Source of the DNA: Bacillota bacterium | GTDB taxonomy: Bacteria; Bacillota_I; Bacilli_A; RF39; UBA660 | DNA length: 64,000 nt | Assembly (NCBI GenBank): GCA_015059425.1 | Contig: SVAM01000009.1 | Span: forward strand, 3,543 to 67,542 | Direction of reading: 5' to 3' | Shown: piece after piece, positions 12,372 to 33,870 of the stretch | Layout of the letters: the number at the start of each line of letters is the position of its first letter | Position numbering within the stretch: position 1 is the stretch's first letter | Notes under the pieces: model-generated | What the model was told of the DNA's origin: nothing | Seen by the model: the letters and a program-made list of their open reading frames with translations, nothing else | Database searches by the model: none | Program-made: the position numbers and the translations under genes

Positions 12372-12382
12372 AAGGAGGAAAA

Positions 12383-14007: not shown

Positions 14008-15993
14008 ATGGAATTAAGTGATATAAAAGGAGTAGGACCCAAACTATTAAAAAGTTTAAATAACTTAAATATAAATACAATAGATGATTTATTATCATAT
14101 TATCCATATAGATATGAAATATTTGAACCATTAAATTTAACAGACGATTATAATGGTGAGCGAATTGCTATTAACGCAACAATTGAATCTTTACCAACAG
14201 TAGCATTCATCAAAAAGAACTTTAATAGATTACAATTTAGAGCTATTCATAACAATAAGATAATGCAAGTAGTAATATTTAATAGAGCATTTATGAAGCA
14301 ACATCTAACTATTAATAAAACTATAACTTTAGTAGGTAAATATGATAGTAAAAAAAATACATTTACATGTGATGATATAAAGTTAACTCCTATAACTAAA
14401 AAAGAAATAATTCCTATATATCACATTAATAAAAATATAAAGAATAATGAACTAAGAAAAATATATGAAAGTTTATTTTCTAACAAACTTGAAGTAAGTA
14501 AATATATACCAGATGAATATTTAGAAAAGTATAAGTTTTTAGATAAATTAGAAGCTTTAAAAAAGATACATATGCCAACTAATTATAATGATATAAAAAG
14601 TGCTAGTCTTTATTTAAAGTATGAAGAGTTATTCTTATTTTTATTTAAAATAGCATATATGAAAAAAGGGAATGATAATATATATAAAACACCAAAAGAG
14701 TTTAATGATAATGATATAAACGAATTTATTAGTACACTACCATTTACTTTAACAGATAGTCAAAGTGATGCCTTAAATTTAATATTAGAAGATTTAAAAA
14801 GTAATAAAAAAATGAATAGATTAGTTTTAGGAGATGTTGGTAGTGGTAAAACAATAGTAAGTTTTATTTCTATGTATGCATCATTCTTATCAGGCTACCA
14901 AAGTGTTTTAATGGCCCCTACAGAGGTTTTAGCGCGTCAACACTATGAAAGTGCTTTAAATTACTTTAAAGGCTTTAAAATGAATATTGGACTACTTGTA
15001 GGTAGTATGACTAAAAAAGAAAAAGACATAGTAAAAGAAAAACTTAAAAATAAAGAAATAGATATACTTATAGGAACACATGCGATTATTGAAGAAAGTG
15101 TAGTATTTAATAAATTAGGATTAGTTATAACAGATGAACAACATAGATTTGGTGTTAAACAAAGAGAAATATTAAAAAGTAAAGGTGAGATTCCAGATGC
15201 ATTATATATGAGTGCTACACCTATACCTAGAAGTTATGCTTTAACTTTATATGGTGATTTAGATGTATCTTTTATTACGCATAAACCAGGTGGTAGAAAA
15301 GAAATAGCAACCAAGATAAAAAAATATACAGCGTTAAAAGATGTTTTAACTCATGTATTAGAAGAAATAAAAAATAATCATCAAGTATATGTAGTAGCAA
15401 GTCTAATAGATGATAACGAAGAATTAGATTTAAAAAGTGTTGAAACATTAAAAGAAAAGTTTAATATAGCATTTAATAATAAAATACCTATTGAAATATT
15501 ACACGGTAAATTAAAACAAAAAGAAAAAGATGAAGTAATGACTAGATTTAAAAACAATGAGACTAAAATACTTATATCAACAACGGTAATAGAAGTGGGA
15601 GTAGATGTTAAGAATGCTACTATAATGGTTATATTTGATGCAGATAGATTTGGTTTAGCAACACTTCATCAGTTGCGTGGTAGAGTAGGAAGAAATTCAC
15701 TTGAAAGTTATTGTTATTTAATATGTGATGAAGAAAAAGAACGTTTAAAAGTATTAGAAGAAAGTAACGATGGTTTTTATATTTCTGAAAAAGATTTAGA
15801 ATTAAGAGGCGAAGGAGATCTATTTGGTATAAGACAAAGTGGGGTTAAAACATTTAAAATAGCAAACTTAAAAACAGATCTAAAAATCATGATGCAAGCT
15901 AAAAAAGATACAGAAGAATATATAAATCAAGAAAATTATAAAAATAACAAATATTACACAAAAATAATAAATGAATTAGATAGTTTAAATTAA
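14008..15993 (+). CDS. recG: ATP-dependent DNA helicase RecG
   Basis: 661 aa. Wedge domain, Walker A GDVGSGKT, DEQH box and helicase C motifs (QLRGRVGR). Confidence 0.93.
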   Translation: MELSDIKGVGPKLLKSLNNLNINTIDDLLSYYPYRYEIFEPLNLTDDYNGERIAINATIESLPTVAFIKKNFNRLQFRAIHNNKIMQVVIFNRAFMKQHLTINKTITLVGKYDSKKNTFTCDDIKLTPITKKEIIPIYHINKNIKNNELRKIYESLFSNKLEVSKYIPDEYLEKYKFLDKLEALKKIHMPTNYNDIKSASLYLKYEELFLFLFKIAYMKKGNDNIYKTPKEFNDNDINEFISTLPFTLTDSQSDALNLILEDLKSNKKMNRLVLGDVGSGKTIVSFISMYASFLSGYQSVLMAPTEVLARQHYESALNYFKGFKMNIGLLVGSMTKKEKDIVKEKLKNKEIDILIGTHAIIEESVVFNKLGLVITDEQHRFGVKQREILKSKGEIPDALYMSATPIPRSYALTLYGDLDVSFITHKPGGRKEIATKIKKYTALKDVLTHVLEEIKNNHQVYVVASLIDDNEELDLKSVETLKEKFNIAFNNKIPIEILHGKLKQKEKDEVMTRFKNNETKILISTTVIEVGVDVKNATIMVIFDADRFGLATLHQLRGRVGRNSLESYCYLICDEEKERLKVLEESNDGFYISEKDLELRGEGDLFGIRQSGVKTFKIANLKTDLKIMMQAKKDTEEYINQENYKNNKYYTKIINELDSLN

Positions 15994-17546: not shown

Positions 17547-17575
17547 TTACAAAAGAGTAAGGAAGAATAAAAATT

Positions 17576-17950
17576 ATGGAAGTAATATTAGAAAAAATAT
17601 ATAATGATTTATTTGACATAAAAAAAGATAAACATATAGAAAAATTATTAGAACGAGATATTATAAAAATAATATATTTGTTATCTAAATATAAAGACAA
17701 AAAATAGACTTAAAAAAAATTATTGAACATTATAATAAAGAAAGAATTGAAAAATTACTTGGTTTTTCTAATACAACTATTCAAGATAGTTTTATTTGTG
17801 AAAAAGAGACCATGCATTTTACTTATCCAATACAAGAGACATTAAATAGAACAGAAGTGCTTTTCAAAATTACTGGAGAAAAAATGTGGAAAGATATATT
17901 TGGTTTTGATTACGAAATATTATATAGTTAAATTATTGTTATCGTACGCA
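17576..17950 (+). pseudogene. degraded gene fragments (multiple frames)
   Basis: Short ORFs in shifting frames (MEVILEKIYNDLFDIKKDKH...), consistent with a decayed gene. Confidence 0.3.
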
Positions 17951-17955
17951 GGCTA

Positions 17956-18255
17956 ATGTATTATAATGCGTATAAAAGCAATGTAGATGAAGAATTTTGT
18001 AGTAATTATGAAAACGTTTGGGAAAAGTCTTTGAATTGCTTTTTTACAAAAGAAGAATTTTATTCTTTTTTTAGAAATCCGGATGAACAATTAGATAATA
18101 TTTTAAAATTAATTTCAATTGATTTTTATGAACAAAACGAAATTAAATTAGCAATAGATCAAGCAGTTTATAACAATAAATTATTTTTAGCTTATGCTAT
18201 AGGTATTTTACAAAATAGAAATGAATGGGGAACAGAAGAATATGAGTATGTATAA
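17956..18255 (+). CDS. phage-related small protein / fragment
   Basis: 99 aa. C-terminal ...LAYAIGILQNRNEWG resembles DnaD/replisome-organiser-type helices. Uncertain. Confidence 0.3.
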   Translation: MYYNAYKSNVDEEFCSNYENVWEKSLNCFFTKEEFYSFFRNPDEQLDNILKLISIDFYEQNEIKLAIDQAVYNNKLFLAYAIGILQNRNEWGTEEYEYV

Positions 18256-18295
18256 AAACTTGTTCTATTTGTAATAGGATTCATGATATAAATAT

Positions 18296-18617
18296 TAATT
18301 GTAAAAGACCATATAGGTATAAAAAAAGATGTAGCTCTGATAGATTTAGAAGCACGTATGAAGGGAAACAAAAAAGAGAAGAGATTAAGAAAAGAGATAG
18401 ATACTTGTGTTTAGCTTGTTTAAATAATATTAACAATACAAATCATATGTAAAACTATAAAAACTTACAAGTACATCATATAATTTCTATAGAAGAAGAT
18501 TATGATAAAAGACTTAATAGTACCAATTTAATAACTTTGTGTCCGTGTCATCATAAGATGGCTGAACAAAAAGAAATTAGTTTAGAAGTACTATTAAAAT
18601 TAGTACCAAAAGAATAA
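18296..18617 (+). pseudogene. HNH endonuclease pseudogene (phage-type), interrupted by in-frame stops
   Basis: Translation gives ...RYLCLACLNNINNTNHM*NYKNLQVHHIISIEEDYDKRLNSTNLITLCPCHHKMAEQKEI... The HNH Cys/His pattern is broken by stop codons. Confidence 0.6.
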
Positions 18618-18813
18618 CCCCCCCGGAGGGTAGAAGTGTGAAAATAAAATCTTTTTCTCAACCCACAGCCTACCTACATTCACACAATTATAAATTTTCC
18701 GTGAGTTTTTTGGAAAATGGTATACCAATTGGATACTTAGATAAGAATAGTATAGATTAGTAAAGTATAGTATAGAATATATATATTTCATGTTGATGAA
18801 AAAAAGAATAAGT

Positions 18814-19143
18814 TTAACACTCATACTCAATTCTTTTAATTTCTAAAGGATTTTCATTAGTAATAAGTAATGCATATTTAACACGTAATAACTTATAGAA
18901 TTCTGCTTTTACCTTTTCAGAATCTTCTCCGAAATAATTAATTACATCTTTAGCAGAATTATAATGTTGTAGAAAAGAACCTTTATACATAGAATGCGTA
19001 TAATAGGAATTAGCTATATAATAGGCAATAACTTCAGGTATTATATAATTTTCTAAATATTCGTTATAATTATCTGCAAAAGGTTTAAGTAGTTTTTCAA
19101 ATTCCTCGTTACTAATATCGCCATTAATATTTTCTCTAATCAT
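18814..19143 (-). CDS. hypothetical protein
   Basis: ORF with ggaggtg RBS; no recognisable motifs. Divergent from the 19379 operon. Confidence 0.45.
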   Translation of the reverse strand: MIRENINGDISNEEFEKLLKPFADNYNEYLENYIIPEVIAYYIANSYYTHSMYKGSFLQHYNSAKDVINYFGEDSEKVKAEFYKLLRVKYALLITNENPLEIKRIEYEC

Positions 19144-19326
19144 ATACACCTCCAGTTGATTGTATTAATCACTTAATTATTCTATTATTGCAAGATTTAA
19201 TTTGGAAATTAAAAAAATTTATAATAAAAGTGATATAAAACTATGAAATATATAATAAAAATTTATTTTTTAAACAGCAATTTATACAAAATGAAGTACT
19301 ACATTTTAAAAATATAGTACAAATAT

Positions 19327-19355
19327 TTGACAAATATGTTGAAAAGATGTAATAT
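19327..19355 (+). promoter_or_regulatory. near-consensus sigma-A promoter of the 4-gene operon
   Basis: TTGACA (19327-19332) - 17 nt - TAATAT (19350-19355). RBS aaagaggg precedes the ATG at 19379. Confidence 0.6.
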
Positions 19356-19378
19356 AGTCGTAGAAAGAGGGCGTTATT

Positions 19379-19601: not shown

Positions 19602-20234
19602 ATGAGTGAAATTGATAAATTAAGAAAAATAAAAGAAATAGATTATGACAGATATGTTGATATAAGTAGTTTAGAAAAAATGGCTGCTTATGCTATCAAA
19701 TATTTAGAAGACAATCAAGTGAACACAACTTGGACGAATGTAGTTATAGCTACATATAGTTTGTTTCCAAGAAGATTTGCAATTAGTGAAGATTTTTTAG
19801 ATTTTCCAAATGCTGAAAGAATTAGTAGAACTTTAATGCATCTGGTTCCACCAAAAGGGAGAAACTATGCGATAGGTAGTAGCAAAATTGATTATGCTTT
19901 AACACCACTTGGAAGGGAAGTTGCTAATGAAGTTGAAATTATTATTAATAGAGAGGCTACAATAAAAAACAGAAAACAAGAAGTTATTTCTTCAATTAAA
20001 ACTACACCAATGACAACTTACACTGATGTTAAGAATTCATCAGAATTTAAACAATATTGTGGTAATAATGAATACTCTGTAGATATGATATGGACTTTAT
20101 ACAAAGTAATACCATTTACACAACAAGATAAAATATTAAAAAAATTAGTTAGTGCTTTAAGATTTTCACAGGAATGTGGAGATGTTAAATGTGAAGAATT
20201 TATTAGTAAAATGATAAATTCAATTCAAAAGTAG
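19602..20234 (+). CDS. hypothetical protein (210 aa), gene 2 of candidate system
   Basis: RBS gaggt; no recognisable motifs. Confidence 0.55.
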   Translation: MSEIDKLRKIKEIDYDRYVDISSLEKMAAYAIKYLEDNQVNTTWTNVVIATYSLFPRRFAISEDFLDFPNAERISRTLMHLVPPKGRNYAIGSSKIDYALTPLGREVANEVEIIINREATIKNRKQEVISSIKTTPMTTYTDVKNSSEFKQYCGNNEYSVDMIWTLYKVIPFTQQDKILKKLVSALRFSQECGDVKCEEFISKMINSIQK

Positions 20235-20247
20235 GGAAGTGATTTAT

Positions 20248-22407
20248 ATGACAGATGTACAATCTTTTATTATTGAAGATTCAGCCAGAAAAAAACTCAT
20301 GGATCAAAAAAATATTTTTGGTCAAAATTTTGTAGAAATGCTTGCTGAAATTATTACAAATGCAGATGATAGCTATTCTAGAATAGAAGATAATACTGGA
20401 GATTATTCTCCTAAAAAAATTGATATCTATTTTGACAGAAGAAAAGACGAATTTACTGTAGTTGATTTTGCTGAAGGTATAGGTGAAAATGAATTAATAA
20501 AAATTTTCAGAAAATATGCAGATGATACTTCTAATACGAATGCAACAAATAAGGTGCGTGGCATGTTTGGTAGAGGTGCCACAGACGTTATGATAGAATC
20601 ATCATTAGTTGGTAAAGAAAATTTTTTGATATCGTTTAGGGATGATGAATCCACAAGACTTGTGTTTAAGTTTGACGAAAACAATAATAAAACATTTACC
20701 AGAGACACATTGACTGAAGAAGAAATAAGATTTTTTAGAAATGAATATAACATTACCGAAAATGGAACGATTGTAAGATTTGGTACAGGAAGAAAATATC
20801 CAAAAGATGTTATTGGTGCAATTGAAGATTATTATATGCTAAGATTTATTTTTGATAATGAAAACAGAAAAATAATATTTCATGATTTAAATGAAGAAAC
20901 AGAAAAACAATTACAAAATGATATGTCTTATTTTGATTATTGTGATGTATTGTGTGAGGAATCATTTGATATTAAATATAAAAATTATAAGTTAAAAGCT
21001 AATTTAAAAATAGTAAATAATCCGAACAAAATATCAAATCATTATATTTTGATATATGATGAAAAAAAAGCTGTTTATGATGATTCTAATTTTAACAGAG
21101 CCACAGAAGCAGGAATAGATAAGATTGAAGGTAGACTTGAGATAATTAATTTAACAACATTTGCTAAACAAATGATGAATGAATTTGGAGAAACAATAAT
21201 AACTCCAACTCGTGATGGATTTGAAACGAAAAATGATTTCTATAAAGACTTGAAAAATAAAGTAGACAAATATATTATTAATGCCTGTGCTATGGTATCA
21301 CAATCAACAGAAAAATCTCAATCAGGTTTAAGAGATAGAAAAGAATGGCGCAATTTCTTTAAAGATATTAATAAATATTTTAAAGATGAATTAGATACAA
21401 TTATTGATGGTGGTGAGGGCGATACAATAAAAGAACCTCCAGAAGAAGGTATTAAATTTGCTAGAAACAGTATTCCTGTTAAAATTGGTAAACATTACTT
21501 AATTAAATTATTGATTAATCCTAATTTAATTACTCTAGGAAGTTTAATTCAAATCCAACATGAAGGTGAATATATAACTCTAGCTCAAGATAAAATTATA
21601 TTTACTAATAATGGAGGAGAAGAAGTCCCTTCGGTATTAGTTGATATTCTCGGCTTAGAAAATACACCGGAACAACAATTTATTACTGCACATTGTGGAA
21701 TTTACGAAGCTAATTTATATTATGATGTTAGAGATGAAGAAGTTCACTTGCCAGCATATGGTTTTGATTTTTTTCCAAATGAATTAAGAAAAAAACCAGA
21801 GGTTACTAGAACAGCTACAATGTATGTTGATACTAACAAATTTGAAATAGGATCTATTATTGAAATTGAAAACAATAATAGTGAAATTGAATTAGAATAT
21901 GAGAACATCGTTATAAGCACGGAACAATTAGTAAATGATAATATAGCTAAAATAAGTCTTAATATTTCTGGTGGTATATTAGGTAAAACCTATTATATTA
22001 GTGCTATGTTAAATGCTAGAAAAATTGAATTTCCAATTATAGTACAGGAGAAAGATGATACAACAAATAATAAAACAGGTATTATTAATGATATACTTCC
22101 AAAAGAATCCCCGGTTAACTATGTACAAAGTTACTACGATAATGATAGAAATATAATCATAGTATCAAATAACGTTGCTAATAAACAACAAATCTCAACT
22201 TGGTTAGAAAAGAAAGAATATGCTACTATTGCAGAAAAATTTGCATTCTATAGTATTTTATCAGAAGAGCTTGCTAGAATAATGATAAGAGAAAAAAGTA
22301 GAAAAGATAAAATTGCAATATCATCAGATCCAGATGAGTTTTTCAGAGTAATAAGTGAAGAAAAAGATAAAATGTATAAGATGCTTTTAAAATCTTTTGA
22401 GGAATAG
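20248..22407 (+). CDS. GHKL (HSP90/sacsin/MORC-type) ATPase-domain protein, 719 aa, gene 3 of candidate system
   Basis: Bergerat-fold boxes: N-box EIITNADDSY, G1 DFAEGIG, G2 GMFGRGATD. The C-terminal ~500 aa are uncharacterised. Confidence 0.6.
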   Translation: MTDVQSFIIEDSARKKLMDQKNIFGQNFVEMLAEIITNADDSYSRIEDNTGDYSPKKIDIYFDRRKDEFTVVDFAEGIGENELIKIFRKYADDTSNTNATNKVRGMFGRGATDVMIESSLVGKENFLISFRDDESTRLVFKFDENNNKTFTRDTLTEEEIRFFRNEYNITENGTIVRFGTGRKYPKDVIGAIEDYYMLRFIFDNENRKIIFHDLNEETEKQLQNDMSYFDYCDVLCEESFDIKYKNYKLKANLKIVNNPNKISNHYILIYDEKKAVYDDSNFNRATEAGIDKIEGRLEIINLTTFAKQMMNEFGETIITPTRDGFETKNDFYKDLKNKVDKYIINACAMVSQSTEKSQSGLRDRKEWRNFFKDINKYFKDELDTIIDGGEGDTIKEPPEEGIKFARNSIPVKIGKHYLIKLLINPNLITLGSLIQIQHEGEYITLAQDKIIFTNNGGEEVPSVLVDILGLENTPEQQFITAHCGIYEANLYYDVRDEEVHLPAYGFDFFPNELRKKPEVTRTATMYVDTNKFEIGSIIEIENNNSEIELEYENIVISTEQLVNDNIAKISLNISGGILGKTYYISAMLNARKIEFPIIVQEKDDTTNNKTGIINDILPKESPVNYVQSYYDNDRNIIIVSNNVANKQQISTWLEKKEYATIAEKFAFYSILSEELARIMIREKSRKDKIAISSDPDEFFRVISEEKDKMYKMLLKSFEE

Positions 22408-22411
22408 TAAA

Positions 22412-24175
22412 ATGGTTTTCTATTATTATAATCTAGATACTCTTGTTGAAAGTTATTTTGATAATGTAAGAATTATTAATATTTTACATAATAATGGGAT
22501 TAAAAATTTATATGATTTGTTTGTGTGTGATATTAATGAAGTATTAAACTCAAATGCATGCGGAAATAAAAGTAAGAGTATTATAGAAGAAACTTTTTAT
22601 TATTTACAAGCATTAGCAAGAAATAAATTTGATACTACAAAGATATATGAAAAATATGATTATTTATTAAATGATATGATTATTGTTTCAAGAAATTCAG
22701 ATAACGGAGAATTAAAAACAGAAGTATTATTTAAAAGATTCCTAGAAATATATGAGTTAGAAAAATTATCCCCCAAAGATTTTGTTAATTCAAATATGAT
22801 AATTCAATTTCTTGAGGTTTATGAGGGTAGTGCACCGTTAGATTATATTAGTCAAGAAACATCAAAATTTAAAAATTATAAAGAAGCTTACGCTTATTTA
22901 AATGATATTATTAATAATAATAAAGCCGATAAAGCAAATATTTTTAAAAGATATAATGGTATTTTCGTTGAAAGAGAAACATTAGAAGAAATAGGTAAAG
23001 ATTTTGGTGTAACAAGAGAAAGAATAAGACAAATTAATAAACGTACTACAGAAAAAATATATAACGCACTAGATACTATATATAGAAAAATAAAAAATAC
23101 ATTTGATAAAGCTTATTACATCCCTTTATCAAATCCAATGTTAAGAATATATTGTGAATATTTATATGAAAGAGGTTTTTTAAAACTAGAAAGAATTTTC
23201 GATGAAAAGGTTTATGTTAGAAACGAAGAATTAATAAATATAGTTAATAAAATAGAAATAGCTCTTGAAGAAAATAATGTATATAGTGATGAAATGGATA
23301 GAAATGTTTTAAAACTCTTTGAAAAAAAATATTTAATTAAGGATGGTAAAATCCTAAAGAATAATACGTTAATTAATTATGTTCCAATGGTTCTAGATGA
23401 AATAGGAAGAGCAGTAAATTTAAATAGTGAAAATGATGTTAATCTGATTTATGACATTTTAGAGCGAGAATATAGTGTAACCACAGAATATAAGGATTCA
23501 AGAAATATTGAGAGAGTATTAACAGATACAAGTATATTAATTGATTCAAGGACTTATATTTCCGAAAAATATCAAAAGAAAGCAGATATGACTGAAGTTT
23601 TTGAATACATAGAAAAAAGTGAAGTTACAAATGCTCAAATTATTTATTCAACTTTCATAAAATTATGGAATAATATTGATATATATAGTCATGTGGGTGT
23701 ATATGGATATTTAAAATATTTTTATCCTAATAAATATAATTATGCAGGAAGAAGTTTCCTTATAAATGTAATTGGCAAAAGTACAACTTGGGGGGAGATT
23801 GTAATTGATATGATTAAAGAAAAAAAGGCCCCAGTAACGTTTAACTCGGTTAATGAATTATATCCGGCATTAAATAATATGATATGGATAAATCTTGAAG
23901 CAAACTTTACTGATTTAATATTTTGGGGAGATAATTCATATTATTGCAATAGTATGTTAAAACTTAGTCCTGAAGATATGAGTTTTATTACTATTTATAT
24001 TTATAACAATGGAACAGTTACAGATAAAGATTTATATACTTACATATTAAATAATAAGGAGTATATAATTCACGATAATTATTTACATAGCGAAAAACAA
24101 TTATTAAAATTTATCAAAGTTAAGTTTGATGGGGTTATTAATTATAATTCTGACTTGAGAACTTATTATATATAA
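22412..24175 (+). CDS. protein with RNAP alpha-CTD-like HhH and sigma-70 region-4-like HTH, gene 4 of candidate system
   Basis: N-terminal VRIINILHNNGIKNLYDLFVCDINEVL (alpha-CTD-like). Mid-protein LEEIGKDFGVTRERIRQINKRTTEKIYNAL (sigma70 r4 HTH). Start overlaps the upstream stop. Confidence 0.55.
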   Translation: MVFYYYNLDTLVESYFDNVRIINILHNNGIKNLYDLFVCDINEVLNSNACGNKSKSIIEETFYYLQALARNKFDTTKIYEKYDYLLNDMIIVSRNSDNGELKTEVLFKRFLEIYELEKLSPKDFVNSNMIIQFLEVYEGSAPLDYISQETSKFKNYKEAYAYLNDIINNNKADKANIFKRYNGIFVERETLEEIGKDFGVTRERIRQINKRTTEKIYNALDTIYRKIKNTFDKAYYIPLSNPMLRIYCEYLYERGFLKLERIFDEKVYVRNEELINIVNKIEIALEENNVYSDEMDRNVLKLFEKKYLIKDGKILKNNTLINYVPMVLDEIGRAVNLNSENDVNLIYDILEREYSVTTEYKDSRNIERVLTDTSILIDSRTYISEKYQKKADMTEVFEYIEKSEVTNAQIIYSTFIKLWNNIDIYSHVGVYGYLKYFYPNKYNYAGRSFLINVIGKSTTWGEIVIDMIKEKKAPVTFNSVNELYPALNNMIWINLEANFTDLIFWGDNSYYCNSMLKLSPEDMSFITIYIYNNGTVTDKDLYTYILNNKEYIIHDNYLHSEKQLLKFIKVKFDGVINYNSDLRTYYI

Positions 24176-24190
24176 AAAAGAAGATTTCTA

Positions 24191-25429
24191 TTAATCTTCT
24201 TTTTTTATTATATTTTCAATCTCTTCTCCAATTTTTTCAATAATACCTACAACTAATGCATTACCCATCATAAAATTTCTCTTTTTTTGAGTCATTCCTG
24301 TGTTTGTCCAATTATCAGGAAATCCGTTTATTCTTTCACATTCAATAGGTGTTAATAGTCTTGGCTTTTTTGTTCTTAAATCTTCAATAACATGAGTTGT
24401 TCGGCTAACGCCACCTTCGCTAGTAAGCATTGTTCTAGCTGGAGCATCTAGGTTGTCAGGGAAAGGCATTGCCCCTTCACTATAGTAATAAGGCTCGCCA
24501 TTAGGTTTAACTCTTGGTATTTTTTTGCTTCCTTTTAAAAATATAAATTTTTCGATTTGAACATCAGATAAGAAATATTTTTCTTCAACTTCATTTTCTT
24601 CTCTAATTTTTCTTAATGGATATACTAAATTATAATCAGCTCTTGTTTTTACTGTATATATACCGCCATCAGCCATAATACCTGCATTATAGAATTCGCA
24701 TTTAAACATGTTACTAACTTCTATTAGATCCTTATATTCTTTTATACTTGATTTAGTTATTGCTTCATAAGCATCTTTGATAGGGAATTGTTTTACAAAT
24801 AACCCTTTTTTAAAAATGACATCTCTATCATTTAAGTTTCTCATTTCTTTATAGTAATTGGTAGATTTGTGATATGCAAAAATATAGGTTCTTCTTCTTT
24901 TTTGTGGCAGACCATATTCACCAGCATTTATAACTCTCCATTGAACATCATAGCCGTTTTCATAGAAACTCCTTAATATCATTCCGAAATCTCTTCCCCT
25001 TTGTTTTGCGGGAGAAAGTAATAATCTATCTACGTTTTCTAACAAAACAAATGGAGGTTGCTTAATAGCTAGGATTTCTTCGATAGCCCACCAAAGGACC
25101 CCTTTTTTTCCTTCAATACCTTTGCTATTTGATAATGTTTGCGCTACTGAATAATCTTGGCATGGAAATCCACCAACTAATAAAGTGTGGTCTGGAATTT
25201 CTTTTTTATCAACTTCAAATATATCGACATTGCTAACATCTTTAAAACCAAATCTTGTTCCGTAACAAATATATGCATCTTGAGTTTTAGTAGCAGGTTC
25301 CCATTGATTTGCCCAAACAAATTTCCAATTTCCGTTTTCTTCAACTTTATTATCTATTAATGTAACCTTATTTAATCCGCATCTAAAACCACCAACACCA
25401 GCAAATAGTTCTACACATGTTTTTTTCAT
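24191..25429 (-). CDS. DNA (cytosine-5)-methyltransferase, M.Sau3AI-like
   Basis: 412 aa. Motif I FAGVGGF, motif IV GGFPCQDYS, ENV motif. Same length as M.Sau3AI and adjacent to the Sau3AI-like endonuclease. Confidence 0.85.
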   Translation of the reverse strand: MKKTCVELFAGVGGFRCGLNKVTLIDNKVEENGNWKFVWANQWEPATKTQDAYICYGTRFGFKDVSNVDIFEVDKKEIPDHTLLVGGFPCQDYSVAQTLSNSKGIEGKKGVLWWAIEEILAIKQPPFVLLENVDRLLLSPAKQRGRDFGMILRSFYENGYDVQWRVINAGEYGLPQKRRRTYIFAYHKSTNYYKEMRNLNDRDVIFKKGLFVKQFPIKDAYEAITKSSIKEYKDLIEVSNMFKCEFYNAGIMADGGIYTVKTRADYNLVYPLRKIREENEVEEKYFLSDVQIEKFIFLKGSKKIPRVKPNGEPYYYSEGAMPFPDNLDAPARTMLTSEGGVSRTTHVIEDLRTKKPRLLTPIECERINGFPDNWTNTGMTQKKRNFMMGNALVVGIIEKIGEEIENIIKKED

Positions 25430-25541: not shown

Positions 25542-25600
25542 TTTCTTAATAATATTTTACTATAAATTTGAAATTAAAACAAGATCGAAAGGAGAATTTT

Positions 25601-26989
25601 GTGAAAAAAGGTAGACATTATTTGGTAGATGAAATTGCTTTTATAGCTCAAACTGCAATTGGAAAATCCTTTAGAGAAATTAGGGATGCAGATATAGTAA
25701 CGCTTGAAGATGATAAAGTTACTAAAGGATCTTTGGGTGGAATAGTGGAGGAGGCATTATTCGGAATTGAAGCTAACGGTGATTCAGCACCAGATTTTAT
25801 TGATGCTGGTGTAGAATTAAAAGTAACTCCTTATAAAAAAAATAAAAATAACACTCTTTCTGCAAAAGAAAGATTAGTATTAAATATAATCGATTACATG
25901 ACTGAATATAAGAATGAATTTTTTTCGAGTCATTTCTGGTATAAAAATAATCTATTAGAAATAATATGGTATCTTCATGAAGATGGTAAAGACAAACTTG
26001 ATTTAAAAATTACTAATGAAATTTTAATGGATTTATCTGAAAGCGAAGACATTAAGCAAATAGAACAAGACTGGTATACGGTTATAACCAAAATAAAAGA
26101 AGGTAAGGCTCATGAAATATCAGAGGGAGATACAATGTATCTTGGGGCTTGTACTAAAGGCGAAAATTCCCTATCATATCGCAGACAACCATTTAGTAAT
26201 ATGATGGCAATGCAAAGAGCATTTTGCTTTAAACAAAGCTATATGACGCAGTTGGTTAGAAAATATATTGGAGATTATTCTAATGTTGAGAAAATATTAA
26301 CAAATACTGAGCAAACATTTGATGAGTTTGTAAATAATGTAGTTAATAAATATAAGGGTAAAACTCAAAGTGAATTAATGGAATTATTTAATATTGAATC
26401 ATCCGCTAAAAATATAAACTCTATTATTGTTAGTCGAATGTTTGGGGTTAAAGGTAGCTTAAATGAAACAGAAGAATTTTTAAAAGCTAACATTATCCCA
26501 AAGACTGTTAGGATAGAAGAAAATGGAAGAATCAAAGAGTCAATGTCTTTTCCAGCTTTTAAGTATATTGAGATAATAAATCAAGAATGGGAAACATCAG
26601 AATTAAGGGAAAGTTTAGAATCGACTAAATATTTATTTTTTGTTTTTAGAATGGATAATAATGAATATGTATTTAAAGGAATTAAATTGTGGAATATGCC
26701 GGAATTAGTAATAGATAATGAAGTTCAAATTATGTGGCAAAAAACCGTTGATATTATAAAGAGTGGTAATATAGTGAAATCTATCACTAATGGTATTAGG
26801 GAAACTAATTTTCCAGGAGTTGCGCAAAATAAAGTGTGTCATGTTAGACCTCACGCAAGAGATGCACAAGATACATATCCATTACCAGTTGTTGATAAAT
26901 TAACTGGATTAACAGATTATACTAAACATTGTTTCTGGTTTAATAGGGGTTATTTAGAAGAAATATTAGAAGAGTATATTAATGAATAA
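25601..26989 (+). CDS. type II restriction endonuclease, Sau3AI family (GATC)
   Basis: GTG start after aaaggaga. Strong similarity recalled from R.Sau3AI: AGVELKVTPYKKNKNNTLSAKERLVLNIIDYM; EGKAHEISEGDTMYLGACTKGENSLSYRRQPFSNMMAMQRAFCFKQSYMTQLVRKYI. Duplicated MutH-like architecture. Confidence 0.8.
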   Translation: MKKGRHYLVDEIAFIAQTAIGKSFREIRDADIVTLEDDKVTKGSLGGIVEEALFGIEANGDSAPDFIDAGVELKVTPYKKNKNNTLSAKERLVLNIIDYMTEYKNEFFSSHFWYKNNLLEIIWYLHEDGKDKLDLKITNEILMDLSESEDIKQIEQDWYTVITKIKEGKAHEISEGDTMYLGACTKGENSLSYRRQPFSNMMAMQRAFCFKQSYMTQLVRKYIGDYSNVEKILTNTEQTFDEFVNNVVNKYKGKTQSELMELFNIESSAKNINSIIVSRMFGVKGSLNETEEFLKANIIPKTVRIEENGRIKESMSFPAFKYIEIINQEWETSELRESLESTKYLFFVFRMDNNEYVFKGIKLWNMPELVIDNEVQIMWQKTVDIIKSGNIVKSITNGIRETNFPGVAQNKVCHVRPHARDAQDTYPLPVVDKLTGLTDYTKHCFWFNRGYLEEILEEYINE

Positions 26990-27102
26990 AATACATTAAT
27001 AAGCTGTAAAACTGGATAAAATTATGATATAATATAAATATGAGAATAGAGCATAATTTCATTTTTAATAATGGAATATGCTTTTTTTGATTGGAGGTAA
27101 CT

Positions 27103-28584
27103 ATGAATAAATTAACTAGAGTTAACGAATATTTAAATGTTTCTGAGAAAGATTTAGAAGAATTGGGTGTTTATAATGGATATGCTAATATAGATTCTGA
27201 ATTATATATTAATCCAAAATTATTAATAGATTGTGAAATAGATGAATTTAAAAATTCTTATAATAAAATTACCAATCATTTTGAAAAAATAATTGAACTT
27301 TTAAGAAAAAGTGAAAAAGCATCAAAAGATGATTTGATGTGGAATCTTGCATTAAAGTTATTTTGTTTTCCTGAACCTAATGGGGTTGCACTGGGTACAT
27401 CTGGATTATCAATAAATGGAAACGGTTTAAGCGGAGAAACAGCAGAGAGTGCATTATTAAAATTAAAAGAAATGATTGATAACGACATAGATGATCCACA
27501 AATTTTTGGGATGTTGGCGCTTATTCAAAAGAATATAGGCGTTGATCGTATAAGTGATATGATAAGCAATATAATATATGATGATTTATTACTTTATACC
27601 GAAAATGTTATACAAAAATTAAATATTACATCTTGTGTTGAAGTAGAATATAATAAAAAACAATATAAAATAAAAATTAGAGAAAATGGTTCAAATTTAA
27701 TACTTATTCCAAAGAAAATATTAAGTAATATTCCACCTTTTGTTGATTATCATTCTATCCAAGATATAATAGATGAAAATGTAAAAATAAAACAACAAAT
27801 TTACGAGATGTTTTATGAGATAAATAAGAAATTAAAAAAGAAAAAAGTTTCTCAAGTAAACATAAAAGATTTAGATAAAGACCAAGTTTATGAGATTATT
27901 AATAAATTTAATTTACATAGAATAATTTTAGATGCAAGTTCTAATATTAATGTAGAACCTTATGATTTTGAAACAGATGTTGAGGGCATTCATAAACCGA
28001 TAGAAAAGATAACAAATTTAATTGCAAAAAAGGAACAACAAGTTTTAGGTAATATTTTAAAAATGAGAAATGAAAATTTTTCTGAGTTAGTAGAAGATTT
28101 AATTAACAATTATAAGTTTATTATTGAAAATAAAGGATTAAATCAAGACTTATATCATAAAGTTCCTACAAAAACAGGTAAATATTATTATAGACCTAAA
28201 CATGAAGGTGTATCTCATCGCTTATTCATTGCTACATTAGAAAATACAAAACAAATTTTTAACTATGATTATACTTACGAACCTAAATCTTCAAACGGAG
28301 AAGTAGATTTTAGATTTTATCGTAATGGTGAAGTTATTGTAGTTGAATTTAAACTAAGTACTAACAAGTTAAAAGATGGATATGATAAACAATTAGTTGA
28401 ATATATGAAAAGAGAAAAGAGTGATAAAGGGTATTATGTGATAATTAAAGTAAAAGATGATAACGCAATTGATAATTTTCTAAAAAATACAAAAATCACA
28501 AATAATAGACCTATTGTAGTAGTAGATGGATTATTAAAATCTAGTCCATCACATTTGCACTCTGAAGAATCGGAGGAAATGTAA
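27103..28584 (+). CDS. hypothetical protein with C-terminal PD-(D/E)xK nuclease-like motif
   Basis: RBS ggaggt. C-terminal GEVDFRFYRNGEVIVVEFKL (D...ExK) followed by QLVEYMK. N-terminal 350 aa unassigned. Confidence 0.5.
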   Translation: MNKLTRVNEYLNVSEKDLEELGVYNGYANIDSELYINPKLLIDCEIDEFKNSYNKITNHFEKIIELLRKSEKASKDDLMWNLALKLFCFPEPNGVALGTSGLSINGNGLSGETAESALLKLKEMIDNDIDDPQIFGMLALIQKNIGVDRISDMISNIIYDDLLLYTENVIQKLNITSCVEVEYNKKQYKIKIRENGSNLILIPKKILSNIPPFVDYHSIQDIIDENVKIKQQIYEMFYEINKKLKKKKVSQVNIKDLDKDQVYEIINKFNLHRIILDASSNINVEPYDFETDVEGIHKPIEKITNLIAKKEQQVLGNILKMRNENFSELVEDLINNYKFIIENKGLNQDLYHKVPTKTGKYYYRPKHEGVSHRLFIATLENTKQIFNYDYTYEPKSSNGEVDFRFYRNGEVIVVEFKLSTNKLKDGYDKQLVEYMKREKSDKGYYVIIKVKDDNAIDNFLKNTKITNNRPIVVVDGLLKSSPSHLHSEESEEM

Positions 28585-28938
28585 ATGAAGAAATTTATGT
28601 TTGATTTAATAGCATCACCATTATCATTGTTTGAAAATCAACTTTACAATTATGTTGCCATGGCAATTATAGGATTTATAGCATTTAAAATAGCTTTTAG
28701 TACGGTTGGAGATTTAGGATTAAGAGGAGAGGCCGGTTCAATAGCCCATTGGATAATAAGATTTTTTGTTTTTGTATTTATATGGTTTATATGTTGTGTG
28801 GCAATTACCTTAATTACATTTATTATTAACAACTGGATTATTATTACGATTAGTGCTATATTGCTATTAGTAATATACACTTTAAAGATATATGCAAATA
28901 AGAATCCAGAAAGCATATTAAACAAAAAAATATTATAG
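28585..28938 (+). CDS. small 3-TM membrane protein, translationally coupled to the upstream nuclease-like gene
   Basis: Stop and start abut (gtaaATG). Three hydrophobic helices. Confidence 0.5.
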   Translation: MKKFMFDLIASPLSLFENQLYNYVAMAIIGFIAFKIAFSTVGDLGLRGEAGSIAHWIIRFFVFVFIWFICCVAITLITFIINNWIIITISAILLLVIYTLKIYANKNPESILNKKIL

Positions 28939-29353: not shown

Positions 29354-30202
29354 ATGTCTGAGAGAGAATTAGATTCAAGTATAAACAATTATATTGAAAC
29401 AGAAACACCTAAAAACTATGTAAAACAATTAGCATGGGATATGGCTATTGGACTTCAAGAAGTTGATAACTTAAAACCTTCTAAGTATTTAGAAAAATTG
29501 TTACAAGAAAACGTAACAGGTGAAAAAACAATTTATGAAGTTGAACATGAATTAAAGCAATATTATGTAGAAAAAGATAAAACAGATAAAACAATTCAAG
29601 ATGAATTTGAATGTGATTTAGTTTCTACTAGAATAGTTCAATTATTGAGTATTGATAATTTTGAACTATCAGTAGACTATATAAAATATATTCATGAATA
29701 TTTATTTAAAGATATTTATGAATTTGCAGGTGAATTTAGAAAAATAGATTTTTCTAAACATGAAAGAATATTAAATAATGATTCAGTTGCATACGGAGAT
29801 TGTAAATTATTAGAACAATCATTAGATTATGATATATCATTAGAAAAAACTAAAAATTATAGTGAAATGAACATAGTTGATGTAATTAATAATATAACTA
29901 ATTTTACTTCAAATATATGGCAAATACATCCGTTTAGAGAAGGCAATACTAGAACTACTGCATTATTTATAGAAAAGTATTTAATATCACTTGGATATGA
30001 TGTAGATAACACTATGTTCAAAGAAAAATCTGTATATTATAGAAATGCATTAGTAAGAAGTAATTATTTTAATAATTATTTAAATATAAAACAAGATAAT
30101 AGTTTCTTAATTAAATTTTATGAAAATTTATTATTAGGTAAAAATAATAATTTACATTCAAGAGATTTAATTATAGAAGAATTATTTAATAAAGAAAATT
30201 AA
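29354..30202 (+). CDS. Fic/DOC-family protein
   Basis: Fic motif HPFREGNTRTTAL. Confidence 0.8.
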   Translation: MSERELDSSINNYIETETPKNYVKQLAWDMAIGLQEVDNLKPSKYLEKLLQENVTGEKTIYEVEHELKQYYVEKDKTDKTIQDEFECDLVSTRIVQLLSIDNFELSVDYIKYIHEYLFKDIYEFAGEFRKIDFSKHERILNNDSVAYGDCKLLEQSLDYDISLEKTKNYSEMNIVDVINNITNFTSNIWQIHPFREGNTRTTALFIEKYLISLGYDVDNTMFKEKSVYYRNALVRSNYFNNYLNIKQDNSFLIKFYENLLLGKNNNLHSRDLIIEELFNKEN

Positions 30203-30381: not shown

Positions 30382-30900
30382 ATGGATAAAGATATTAAAC
30401 CATATAAACAAAGAGGCGAGACTTGTGCCATAGCGTGTTTAATGATGGCTTTAGAATATTATAAAAAGATTGAAAAAGCTAATTGGTATGTAAATTTATC
30501 TAAAAAAGGTTTAAATACAACAATATATCATTCAGAAAAAGATTGTTTTACAAACAAAAATAAAGCATTATCTGATTTAGATTTTGAGTATGCGATGAAA
30601 GAATATAAAGAATATTTGAATATTGCTAAATCATTAGGTACAGAAATAAAAAATGGCATAATTATAAACACAGAGTTAATAAAAGAAGAATTGAAAAAAG
30701 ATAATTTAGTTATTTTAGCAGGAAAATTGTCAGGTGGATATCACGCAATTCTAATTTCAGGATATGATAATAATAAATTCATAGTTTGTGACCCTCTTTA
30801 CAAAAATAAACAAGAAAAAACAGAAACAGAATTAGAAAAATTTATGAATACAGGAATTGGTAAATGGTTTATTAGTGTAAACAATAAAAAAGTATATTAG
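30382..30900 (+). CDS. papain-like Cys peptidase (C39-like / BtrH-like)
   Basis: Catalytic Cys in QRGETCAIACLMMALEYY; His in GGYHAILISGYD. Confidence 0.55.
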   Translation: MDKDIKPYKQRGETCAIACLMMALEYYKKIEKANWYVNLSKKGLNTTIYHSEKDCFTNKNKALSDLDFEYAMKEYKEYLNIAKSLGTEIKNGIIINTELIKEELKKDNLVILAGKLSGGYHAILISGYDNNKFIVCDPLYKNKQEKTETELEKFMNTGIGKWFISVNNKKVY

Positions 30901-30920: not shown

Positions 30921-31460
30921 ATGAAAAAATTATATATTGTCCGTCATGGTCAAACTGATTGGAATGTACAAAAATTATTACAAGGTAAAACAGACATAGA
31001 ATTAAATGAAGAAGGAATTAAACAAGCTAAAGAATTAGCTAAAGTAATAGACTTAGATAAAATAGATATTTGTATTTGCTCCCCTTTAAAAAGAACTAGA
31101 AAAACAGCTGAACTAATTGTAGGTGATAAAGTACCTATTGTTTATGATGAATTAGTTCTTGAAAGAGATTTTGGCAATTATGAAGGGAACCCTATTATAT
31201 TTGATTTAATTGCTAAACAATGGGACTACAAAATAAATGATAGAGAAGAAGGCATAGAACCAGTACAAGATTGTTTAAAAAGAGCAAAGAAATTTTTAAA
31301 TAAAATTAATAATGAATATAAAAATAAAAATATATTAATAGTCTCACATGGAAGCTTTATTAAAGCATTACACTTTAATTTAATAGGATACAATGAGAAT
31401 ACTGATTTATTATCATTTAATCCTAAAAATGCATTGATTTATGAATACGAAATAGAATAA
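30921..31460 (+). CDS. histidine phosphatase (phosphoglycerate mutase-like) family protein
   Basis: RHG motif in LYIVRHGQTDWN; C-terminal catalytic His in VSHGSFIKAL. Confidence 0.8.
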   Translation: MKKLYIVRHGQTDWNVQKLLQGKTDIELNEEGIKQAKELAKVIDLDKIDICICSPLKRTRKTAELIVGDKVPIVYDELVLERDFGNYEGNPIIFDLIAKQWDYKINDREEGIEPVQDCLKRAKKFLNKINNEYKNKNILIVSHGSFIKALHFNLIGYNENTDLLSFNPKNALIYEYEIE

Positions 31461-31554
31461 TTATGGGCCTGTAACATTATCGCATTAATTAAAAGATTTT
31501 AATATAATTTAAATTTAACTTTAAAATCTGTTATAATTAACTTAGGTGATAAAA

Positions 31555-31944
31555 ATGATAAAAGTAGTCGCAGCATTAATAGAAAAAGATGATAAAATTC
31601 TTATTGCCAAACGTTCTACTGGAGATGAATATGTATTTGGTAAATGGGAATTTCCTGGCGGCAAAGTAGAACCCAATGAAAGTGAATTAACTGCTATAGA
31701 AAGAGAAATATTAGAAGAGTTTGAACTAAAAGTTAAAGCTAAAGAATTTATAACAAATAATGTTTGTATTTATCCTACAAAAACAGTTGATTTAAGATTA
31801 TATAGATGTGATTATATAAATGGAGAATTTAAGTTACATGATCATTCAGAATATAAATGGGTTAAGAAAGAAGAAATAATGAATTATGATTTAGCACCTG
31901 CTGATATACCACTTGCAAATTATATTAGAACACAAAACAATTAA
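31555..31944 (+). CDS. NUDIX hydrolase (MutT-like)
   Basis: Nudix box GKWEFPGGKVEPNESELTAIEREILEEFEL. Confidence 0.8.
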   Translation: MIKVVAALIEKDDKILIAKRSTGDEYVFGKWEFPGGKVEPNESELTAIEREILEEFELKVKAKEFITNNVCIYPTKTVDLRLYRCDYINGEFKLHDHSEYKWVKKEEIMNYDLAPADIPLANYIRTQNN

Positions 31945-32008
31945 CTACCAAATGGTAGTTTTTTTTACAAAATAAAATTTTGTGTTATAATATATCGCAG
32001 GTGGTTTT

Positions 32009-33844
32009 ATGTCTAAGGAGACATTTAGTGAAAAAATAAGTGAATCAATGTATAGAAAAACAAAAGCTATTGAGTATATTTACCCTAATATATTTTTAGA
32101 ACATGACGATAATTTTGAAATAGCATTATGTTTAGCATACATGACGCTATCAAAAGAAAAGATAATAGATAAAGATATAAAGAGTAAAGATAGATTAGCA
32201 AGATTAACCGAGCATGTAGATATGTCGGAAATTAATAAACTATTTACTCCAGGCTTTGCCATTGAAATGCCAAATATAATATTTGCTAAAGAAAATAATT
32301 ATTTATGGATTTTAGATAATATTAGAGATTCTATAATGCATGGTGTATTTGATATAGATGAAGAAAGAAAATGTTTCATAATTAATAACACCCAATTTGA
32401 TAGAGAGCTAAGTGCTGAAATACCTTTTTCTTGGTTTATCGCATATGCAAAAAACGATATATTAAGTAAAAAAACTACAGATAAATATACAATAAAAGGT
32501 TTTTATTATAATAAAAATAAAAGTAATAAAAGAAATTTAGAAACGAAAAAAGAACTAGTATCTAACATTTTGTATAGAGTAAATATAACTGGTACATCAT
32601 TCAATAATAAAAAGATAAAAACTAGAATAATTGAACTATTTGAATTATATTCTAAGAGTGATATAAGTAATGAAGATGTTGAAAAGTATAGAAGCAATAT
32701 AGAAAAAGAAATAATTAAATATAATGAGAAATATTTAGTATCATTTTATATAGCACGAGAAGAAATAAAAAAAGTTGTTGAAAAAGAATTCCCTGGAGTA
32801 ACAATTGATATTATATTGGATAACAGGAAATATCGATTTATTAATAAAACTTTAAAAAGATTACCTAAAAACTATACAGATTATGATTTAATGTATAATT
32901 CATTTAACAAAGAAGCATCACCTAAAGGTATGATGCTACTAGAATATTTAACTAATATAATTGAGGCTTTAGATAATAAAGATATAAAAGAATTAAGTAT
33001 TAATGAAGGCTATAATGAAAGAATTAAATTATTTAATTTTATATTAAATGGAGATAACATAGACTACAATAATATTAAAAATAAAAATATGCTTTTAGAA
33101 CAAAATTTAAATATATTAAGATCAATATGTTTAAATGTATATGGTTTAGCAACTCTTGTTATCAATCATGAAACATTATATAACAATCATTTCTTAAATG
33201 AACATCCATCAAAATATAATATTAAAGCTTGTATAAAAAGACCTTTTATTGAATATGTAACAAAAAGAAAAAGTTTATTACTAAAAATACTAGAAATAGA
33301 TTTAAGACTTTTTGAAAAAAACGAACAATATAGTAAATGTCAAAATGAAACAGGTAAACAAAAGATACAATCAACTATTAATGCTTTAAATAATGTTAAA
33401 CTAACTTATCAAAATGAATTAGCTAATTTACAAACAATAACTGGCTATGAGCCAGTATTAGTAGGAGATGTAAATTACGAAAAAAAACAAGAATTAGAAA
33501 ATATAATAAGAGTTTATTTTAATCATTTTTATAATGCTCAAACTATAGAAGTAAAGAAAAAAATATATAAAATAATTAATAATCTATTAACAAAACAAAT
33601 AGAAGAAGAATCAAAATATACATTTAGTCAATGTAGTAATATGAAAGATGTTTTAGAAATAATTAGAAATAGTTTTTCACACATAGGAAGAATAAGAATG
33701 AAAAAAAATAGAGGAACTAATACTATTATTAAATTAAATGATTATGACAACAATAATGAAAAGAGTGGAGAAGTAAACTGTGAATATATGGATTTGATAC
33801 AAGTCTTAAATGCTCCTTATAATCAAGAAGAAATAAAAAGATGA
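32009..33844 (+). CDS. 611-aa hypothetical protein with two HEPN-like R(N/D)xxxH motifs
   Basis: NIRDSIMHG (near aa 103-111) and IRNSFSHIG (near aa 553-561). Extended -10 promoter ttgtgttataat upstream. Confidence 0.5.
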   Translation: MSKETFSEKISESMYRKTKAIEYIYPNIFLEHDDNFEIALCLAYMTLSKEKIIDKDIKSKDRLARLTEHVDMSEINKLFTPGFAIEMPNIIFAKENNYLWILDNIRDSIMHGVFDIDEERKCFIINNTQFDRELSAEIPFSWFIAYAKNDILSKKTTDKYTIKGFYYNKNKSNKRNLETKKELVSNILYRVNITGTSFNNKKIKTRIIELFELYSKSDISNEDVEKYRSNIEKEIIKYNEKYLVSFYIAREEIKKVVEKEFPGVTIDIILDNRKYRFINKTLKRLPKNYTDYDLMYNSFNKEASPKGMMLLEYLTNIIEALDNKDIKELSINEGYNERIKLFNFILNGDNIDYNNIKNKNMLLEQNLNILRSICLNVYGLATLVINHETLYNNHFLNEHPSKYNIKACIKRPFIEYVTKRKSLLLKILEIDLRLFEKNEQYSKCQNETGKQKIQSTINALNNVKLTYQNELANLQTITGYEPVLVGDVNYEKKQELENIIRVYFNHFYNAQTIEVKKKIYKIINNLLTKQIEEESKYTFSQCSNMKDVLEIIRNSFSHIGRIRMKKNRGTNTIIKLNDYDNNNEKSGEVNCEYMDLIQVLNAPYNQEEIKR

Positions 33845-33870
33845 ACATAATAATCGTTCATCTATTTTTG
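33842..33870. terminator. bidirectional terminator
   Basis: gatgaac-ataataatc-gttcatc followed by a T-tract. Confidence 0.55.

Follow-up and report, generated by a model that had tools for sequence, protein, structure and literature searches.

A stand-alone gene of uncultured gut Bacilli encoding a predicted protein with two HEPN-related domains

The window analysed here is a stretch of 64,000 nucleotides from a Bacillota bacterium of the RF39 lineage (contig SVAM01000009.1, positions 3,543 to 67,542, of assembly GCA_015059425.1); all coordinates below are those of the window. Our subject is an open reading frame (ORF) on the plus strand, 32009-33844, which starts with ATG and encodes a protein of 611 amino acids, identical to the NCBI entry MBE6154873.1 and there named 'hypothetical protein'. 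Both ends of this protein resemble known HEPN families and each end carries a strongly conserved R-x4-H motif; we refer to it as the double-HEPN protein.

The gene and its transcription unit

The features of the gene and of its immediate borders are as follows.

31943..31960, plus strand: terminator-like hairpin and T-run 3' of the NUDIX gene, a 7-bp stem followed by TTTTTTTACAA
31964..31991, plus strand: sigma-70-type promoter TTTACA-16-TGtTATAAT with extended -10 (11/12 matches, TG present)
31999..32004, plus strand: Shine-Dalgarno sequence AGGTGG, 4 nt 5' of the ATG (direct sequence reading)
32009..33844, plus strand: coding sequence of the double-HEPN protein (ORF call; identity to MBE6154873.1)
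32009..32473, plus strand: predicted HEPN domain 1, DUF3644/EC042_2821-like, about residues 1-155 (isolated-domain Pfam scans, family members)
32324..32341, plus strand: predicted catalytic motif 1, R106-D-S-I-M-H111, residues 106-111, at the end of helix 98-110
32474..33460, plus strand: central alpha/beta and long-helix region, about residues 156-484, the most variable part
33461..33841, plus strand: predicted HEPN domain 2, pEK499_p136-like, about residues 485-611 (isolated-domain Pfam scans)
33665..33682, plus strand: predicted catalytic motif 2, R553-N-S-F-S-H558, residues 553-558, at the end of helix 545-557
33839..33863, not assigned to one strand: hairpin common to the gene and the convergent response-regulator gene, overlapping the stop codon (hairpin scan)

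The hairpin at 31943-31960 cuts the gene off from upstream transcription, and the one at 33839-33863 is likely a bidirectional terminator. The intergenic spaces on the two sides are 64 bp and 17 bp. With a promoter of its own, hairpins on both sides and such short flanking spaces, the gene is monocistronic. The extended -10 promoter had already been attributed to the gene in the initial annotation, and the sequence at 31964-31991 agrees with it. Terminator-like sites are frequent around the gene: six were found between 31400 and 34100, against 0.3 expected from shuffled sequences, and three of the six are intergenic. Antisense-strand terminator-like hairpins lie within the coding sequence, at 33456-33440 (minus) and 32937-32914 (minus).

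Conserved motifs and HEPN-related domains at both ends

The protein contains three exact R-x4-H motifs, starting at residues 106, 501 and 553. The copy at 501 is not conserved. The two others, RDSIMH and RNSFSH, have their arginines 447 residues apart and are the pair that the initial annotation had placed at a distance of roughly 450 residues. Shuffling the 611-residue sequence gave a mean of 0.33 motifs per sequence and a probability of 0.038 for two or more, so that their presence alone is weakly unusual. The conservation of the motifs is another matter. In an alignment of 101 close homologues, H111, R553 and H558 are invariant, and R106 and N554 reach at least 90%. These three invariant residues are also the only invariant columns in an alignment of 36 sequences spanning the superfamily at a mean identity of about 20%, in which R106, N554 and D578 are kept in at least 90%. 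Both modules carry R-x4-H in 143 of the 153 relatives of at least 540 residues, and most of the other ten have distant C-termini that the local hidden Markov model missed and in which the alignment reveals R-N-x3-H. The best-conserved stretches of the chain are residues 41-60, 101-120, 141-160 and 541-560, and the least conserved ones 321-360 and 441-500; within the family, K49 and E50 of domain 1 and N386 of the central region are invariant as well. R106-H111 and R553-H558 are thus both conserved motifs of the R-x4-6-H form that characterizes HEPN domains, and it is decisively this conservation, not the occurrence of the motifs, that gives them their predicted significance.

Scans of the whole protein against Pfam, NCBIfam, PADLOC and PHROGs returned no match for the full-length query, and full-length scans of 34 homologues returned a single stray HEPN match; scanning the domains in isolation revealed HEPN families. 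When the N-terminal domain was taken alone (residues 1-165), DUF3644 (PF12358) was matched by 24 of 37 members, with a best E value of 1.6e-7, over residues ~13-115, stopping just past motif 1. DUF4209 (PF13910) was matched by three of the 37 (best E 0.041). The former corresponds to the EC042_2821 HEPN family, known from restriction-modification operons, and the latter to the C6orf70 HEPN family (Anantharaman 2013, PMC3710099). Measured against the gathering cut-off of PF12358, 27.6 bits, eight of ten tested homologues scored 13.6-23.4 bits, while the best member is estimated at about 31 bits.

The C-terminal domain (residues 478-611) matched the HEPN family pEK499_p136 (PF18736) in 21 of 40 members (best E 9.6e-5), the RNase L/Ire1 KEN domain (PF06479) in eight (best E 0.0017) and Abi_2 (PF07751) in two (best E 0.031). 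The query's own C-terminal domain is among the matches, with an E value of 0.003 for PF18736, over protein residues 520-595, and of 0.0092 for PF06479. For the pEK499_p136 family, Anantharaman et al. (2013, PMC3710099) describe restriction-modification and Pgl contexts. PADLOC gave no match for the isolated N-terminal domains and, for the isolated C-terminal ones, weak matches only, to Cas13b (9.6e-5, in its C-terminal HEPN region), Cas13a and CARF-HEPN.

No non-HEPN family recurs in more than two members in these scans: judged by sequence profiles, all recurrent matches of both ends are to HEPN families. As the query's matches lie below curated cut-offs, we treat the two ends as HEPN-related and not as formal family members. 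The proposal made in the initial annotation that both motifs lie within HEPN domains is thereby strengthened by the profiles, DUF3644 for the N-terminal side and pEK499_p136, KEN and Abi_2 for the C-terminal side. Its suggestion of a new HEPN family gives way to that of a new combination of two already described families, and the protein is best described as a predicted fusion of two different HEPN families. A comparison of the N and C modules with hhalign yielded an E value of 0.28, the best local alignment setting both motifs in register; a recent internal duplication was rejected on this basis.

AlphaFold2, run on the 101-sequence alignment, predicted a compact monomer (predicted local distance difference test, pLDDT, 91.6; predicted template modelling score, pTM, 0.86). 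In the model, each motif ends a helix that is preceded by two helices and followed by a beta meander of three strands and then by one more helix. The predicted order is helices 3-22 and 34-52, an insert, helix 98-110, meander 115-139 and helix 140-154 in domain 1, and helices 490-509, 513-534 and 545-557, meander 562-592 and helix 593-604 in domain 2. A census of HEPN proteins describes the motif at the end of helix 3, an acidic residue in helix 2 and inserts as a frequent feature (PMC3710099). The modelled position of the motifs at helix ends and, in domain 1, the invariant E50 of the second helix fit this description at the level of secondary structure. Foldseek against the PDB gave no match, and the fold searches that the initial annotation had recommended as a check retrieved a HEPN structure neither for the full-length model nor for the C-terminal domain, the long hairpins probably dominating the scores. 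When the PDB was searched by sequence, with the protein itself or with profiles of the family and of each domain, only coiled-coil or low-complexity noise came back. No recognisable domain was found in the helix-rich central region of about 330 residues, for which we propose a role in regulation, sensing or substrate binding.

Distribution, genomic contexts and probable function

A word-indexed search of 5.8 billion proteins retrieved 109 relatives, nearly all of them full length (590-680 residues) and none with a name other than 'hypothetical protein'. Searched exhaustively with a profile, 1.84 billion representatives gave 156 matches, which include more distant proteins of 570-770 residues sharing both ends; a third homology search, made with the broad alignment, added no distant or annotated members. 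The family is present at only ~10 loci in a dataset of one genome per species covering 185,579 species, and nearly all loci belong to metagenome-assembled genomes (MAGs) of uncultured Bacilli, including Ca. Coprovivens. Three partial or unusual copies were noted. A partial homologue (L014, CAZFGE010000013.1; residues 1-209, at a contig end) comes from a MAG labelled Muribaculaceae (Bacteroidota), a finding explained either by misbinning or by gene transfer from Bacilli. A 432-residue protein on a 1.9-kb metagenome contig (P0102) is 68% identical to the double-HEPN protein over about 35% of the length of the latter, apparently in the N-terminal HEPN region, and also contains, at residues 184-264, a glycosyltransferase DXD domain that gives a weak TcdA/TcdB-like match; this joining of HEPN and glycosyltransferase parts is either natural or the product of a chimeric assembly. 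The third (P0115) is an N-terminal-only copy with a contig end 72 nt away, and is uninformative.

The family diverges quickly. In a genome whose RecG is 95% identical to that of the window, the double-HEPN protein is 66% identical, the histidine kinase encoded downstream of it 63%, the response regulator 88% and the NUDIX protein 83%; in another, with RecG at 50%, the double-HEPN protein still reaches 53%. These figures indicate rapid evolution that is partly uncoupled from the phylogeny of the host, although a conservation floor of the N-terminal domain may contribute.

The surroundings of the gene are equally variable. Eleven independent contexts represent at least seven different neighbourhoods, and the immediate neighbours are seldom the same in any two. 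In four of the eleven, restriction-modification genes are found at distances of up to about 8 kb, and conflict-type genes occur in two further contexts (GT4-conflict with HerA; PDDEXK_4 with DUF4268); the remaining ones hold housekeeping or unknown genes. In the first of these two pairings, a HerA-like ATPase (DUF87/HerA_C) and a 'GT4-conflict' glycosyltransferase (L020, 5111-7957) stand directly upstream of the homologue P0042. No family of neighbouring ORFs of at least 40 residues recurs in three or more of 14 loci, and the gene therefore has no conserved partner gene or antitoxin. At two metagenome loci that retain an orthologous histidine kinase-response regulator pair and 6 kb beyond it, the double-HEPN gene is absent. 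A 613-residue protein adjoining the homologue P0087 was considered as an upstream paralogue and proved unrelated.

In the window, the gene closes a variable stretch that starts after recG (14008-15993), and the histidine kinase-response regulator pair, which is kept in the closest relative, lies downstream of it. The other features of the region are listed here.

10617-13960, plus strand: a dockerin type I and SH3 protein, and a cadherin-like beta-sandwich protein (domain scan)
~17547-19378, not assigned to a strand: ~1.8-kb stretch in which both strands hold only short ORF fragments, flanked by a 364-aa ORF without Pfam match and by the MORC-like unit
19602-24175, plus strand: three packed or overlapping ORFs of 210, 722 and 592 aa (722-aa, HATPase_c_3, MORC-like; 592-aa, sigma-70 region 4 helix-turn-helix)
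24191-25429, minus strand: C5 cytosine DNA methylase, divergent from the MutH/Sau3AI-like endonuclease
25568-26989, plus strand: MutH/Sau3AI-like endonuclease, ~5 kb upstream of the double-HEPN gene
27091-28584, plus strand: 497-aa protein (phrog_30194, E 9e-53; weak C-terminal Mrr_cat and Cas4-like, PD-(D/E)XK, matches)
28585-28938, plus strand: 117-aa membrane-like ORF, at zero gap from the phrog_30194 gene
29354-30202, plus strand: Fic/DOC protein, 282 aa (PADLOC candidate PDC-S72, E 2.6e-80; PDC-S04 and SoFic weaker)
30382-30900, plus strand: stand-alone C39-like cysteine peptidase domain, 172 aa, with no fused ABC transporter

The methylase and the endonuclease are likely a type II restriction-modification pair. 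The 210-, 722- and 592-aa ORFs form an uncharacterised unit within the island, the 497- and 117-aa ORFs may form a two-gene unit, and the ~17547-19378 stretch, in which no Rfam family was matched, may represent the remains of a gene or non-coding DNA. Together with these, the island holds the C39-like peptidase, the histidine phosphatase and the NUDIX gene. The dockerin and cadherin-like genes suggest a cellulosome-like surface system, which fits a gut or rumen organism. Two statements of the initial annotation concern this region, and both were recovered: the NUDIX (31546-31944) and histidine phosphatase (30921-31460) genes do adjoin the double-HEPN gene, which does lie at the edge of a variable island, one with a restriction-modification pair and other conflict-type genes. 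As functional partners the NUDIX and histidine phosphatase genes were rejected, a terminator following the NUDIX gene and both genes being displaced or absent at other loci.

HEPN ribonuclease activity needs two domains, each giving an arginine and a histidine, which come from a single chain in Cas13 and from two chains in HepT and ApeA. Since two domains are needed and both motifs are kept in essentially every member, the simplest reading is that the two domains pair obligately, and pairing within the chain to form one composite site is the most likely arrangement. We favour, with modest confidence, the reading that the gene encodes a cytoplasmic single-chain double-HEPN ribonuclease with a composite site, acting as a single-gene abortive-infection or defence effector. 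By analogy with Cas13, the DUF3644/EC042_2821-type and pEK499_p136-type domains would pair within the chain and form one composite ribonuclease site, which the variable central region would hold inactive. A cue from an invading phage or plasmid would switch the enzyme on, and the active enzyme would cut RNA (tRNA, rRNA or mRNA, of the host or of the invader), leading to growth stop or to a block of the invader. A defence role is the most likely one because both parent families are linked to defence in the literature and because the gene is accessory, variable in position and adjacent to restriction-modification genes; the protein is probably a single-gene defence or abortive-infection ribonuclease of uncultured gut bacteria. 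A more far-reaching version, possible if doubtful, would make it an independently evolved single-chain HEPN heterodimer, a self-contained sensor-effector immune ribonuclease whose central region senses an invader cue and opens or aligns the composite site.

Several observations weigh against this reading. On the side of the domain assignment, the query's own N-terminal domain gave no DUF3644 match in the isolated-domain scan, and the DUF3644 model itself holds some non-HEPN AbiJ-NTD2 sequences (PMC3710099). The PF18736 cut-off of 26.6 bits lies above both the query's C-terminal domain, at 17.7 bits, and the best member, and the N and C modules have no significant similarity to each other. On the side of a defence role, no PADLOC defence model matched the full-length protein, and searches of IMG/VR, INPHARED phages and PLSDB plasmids found no relatives. 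The association with restriction-modification genes amounts to four contexts of eleven, a count without a background control. Close relatives keep the gene beside the histidine kinase-response regulator pair and its divergence runs at about the pace of the kinase, a linkage that would fit a cellular function specific to the lineage and inherited vertically just as well.

The same two domains might instead pair between chains (N-N, C-C or head-to-tail) and form sites as in HepT, ApeA and Csm6. Most HEPN proteins do work as homodimers, and the two domains belong to different HEPN families with no similarity detectable at the E value of 0.28 given above. If the sites were independent, however, some lineages should have lost one of them, whereas both motifs are kept in essentially all ~150 relatives; the full-length monomer is also modelled as compact and with confidence. 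We consider pairing between chains unlikely, and it would alter the mechanism, not the kind of protein.

The protein could also be a lineage-specific cellular ribonuclease of reduced-genome gut Bacilli, serving RNA processing, turnover or stress in the manner of Las1 or Ire1 and having no immune or toxin role. The exclusively chromosomal occurrence of the family would suit such a function, as would the strong housekeeping-type promoter, the lack of an immunity partner, the several contexts with housekeeping neighbours only, the position beside the histidine kinase-response regulator pair in the closest relative and the regional linkage to NUDIX and recG genes in three genomes. The rarity of the family argues the other way: its ~10 loci in the species dataset and its 109 clusters contrast with RecG, for which 7,970 clusters were found at E <= 1e-100 and the top 120 listed were all at least 74% identical. 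The position of the gene also differs between lineages, and two relatives lack it beside the orthologous kinase-regulator pair. Outside the catalytic motifs the protein evolves fast, and the literature links each of the two parent HEPN families to restriction-modification or defence. A cellular role is, in our judgement, rather unlikely.

Much less probable is a role as the toxin in a toxin-antitoxin or addiction module of which the antitoxin, for example a small protein, a small RNA or a modifying enzyme with its gene elsewhere, escaped recognition. HEPN domains are classic toxins, as in HepT/MntA and in AbiF with its RNA antitoxin, and an NTP_transf_2 gene lies ~7.5 kb from one homologue. 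Against it speak the flanking spaces of only 64 and 17 bp in the window and the absence of a recurrent neighbouring ORF family, of any Rfam family near the gene in nine sequences and of tandem repeats.

An RNA-guided ribonuclease of the Cas13 type, with its guide RNA encoded elsewhere, is suggested by the two HEPN domains per chain and by weak local matches of the C-terminal motif to Cas13b and Cas13a, and is highly improbable given that these matches reach only 14-19 bits over ~55-70 residues, that the N-terminal domain comes from another HEPN family (DUF3644), that the gene has no conserved flanking non-coding space, and that neither a CRISPR-like or tandem array in the window or the 22 homologue loci (L001-L022) nor a cas gene among the ORFs scanned within ~+/-15 kb of the gene was found. 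The lack of an array and of cas genes had been pointed out in the initial annotation, whose overall interpretation survives in its HEPN domains, missing array and island-edge position and fails in its new family.

Comparison with known systems

No stand-alone protein joining a DUF3644-type to a pEK499_p136-type domain, with the two motifs intact, turned up in the literature and libraries searched. Among proteins studied by experiment, HEC-08 and Ishtar come nearest, each with one HEPN domain. HEC-08 (Hma-embedded candidate 8; Payne et al., bioRxiv 10.1101/2024.01.29.577857) is likewise a single gene with an N-terminal DUF3644-type HEPN domain, and its anti-phage defence needs the motif histidine (bioRxiv 10.1101/2024.01.29.577857). 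In HEC-08 the HEPN domain is followed by zinc-ribbon-like domains, whereas our protein continues with a long helical region and a HEPN domain of a second family; no model of PADLOC-DB v2.0.0 matched our protein, a release not confirmed to hold a HEC-08 model. The Ishtar anti-plasmid proteins (bioRxiv 10.64898/2026.07.06.735840) are also encoded by single genes of patchy distribution, have their HEPN domain (DUF3644 or DUF4145) at the N-terminus, and are often found near other defence genes; they differ in their source, Enterobacteria, and in their small beta/alpha C-terminal domain, which has no assigned function and is not of the HEPN type (bioRxiv 10.64898/2026.07.06.735840). The pEK499_p136 family (PMC3710099) provides the recurrent matches of our C-terminal domain across the R-N-x3-H region, although these stay below the cut-off and no second HEPN domain is reported for the members described.

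Outside Cas13, chains with two HEPN domains are known from CnuE of type III-A CoCoNuT systems, from Swt1 and from Csx1 (MJ1666). These proteins belong to multi-gene systems or are fused to PIN or CARF domains, while the gene described here stands alone; one of their two domains is often degenerate (RxH in CnuE, inactive in Swt1), while both motifs are intact here. ApeA resembles our candidate as a single-protein HEPN defence ribonuclease with a separate sensing surface and an infection cue as trigger, yet it has one HEPN domain and forms a homodimer, and no ApeA model of Pfam or PADLOC matched the double-HEPN protein. Unlike HepT/MntA, the gene has no adjoining MNT nucleotidyltransferase gene in any of the 11 contexts; it differs from AbiD/AbiF in that Abi_2 was matched by only two of 40 C-terminal domains (E >= 0.031) and that neither RF03085 nor another Rfam family was matched nearby.

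Nearly all known non-CRISPR HEPN ribonucleases homodimerise, and Cas13 is the best-studied case of pairing within one chain. Cas13, including the compact Cas13an, shares with our protein the two HEPN domains per chain, which in Cas13 are paired into one ribonuclease site and have been proposed to derive from a fusion of two HEPN genes (PMC12165695). It differs in having a CRISPR array, a guide RNA and cas neighbours, and in that its two domains are closely related and AbiD/F-like, whereas those of the double-HEPN protein come from two HEPN families; Cas13 models were not matched over their full length, their similarity to the isolated C-terminal domains being confined to the stretch around the motif. 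If the reading that we favour is right, the protein would be a second, independent instance of the route by which fusion of two HEPN domains leads to a single-chain site. It would also offer a simple model for how such a site is gated from off to on without a guide RNA, and would bring in a candidate for a single-gene immune or toxin protein from the uncultured Bacilli of gut and rumen with small genomes, a group whose defence repertoire is hardly explored. Should the more tentative heterodimer proposal hold as well, this protein would represent a protein-only parallel to the activation of Cas13 by its target RNA.

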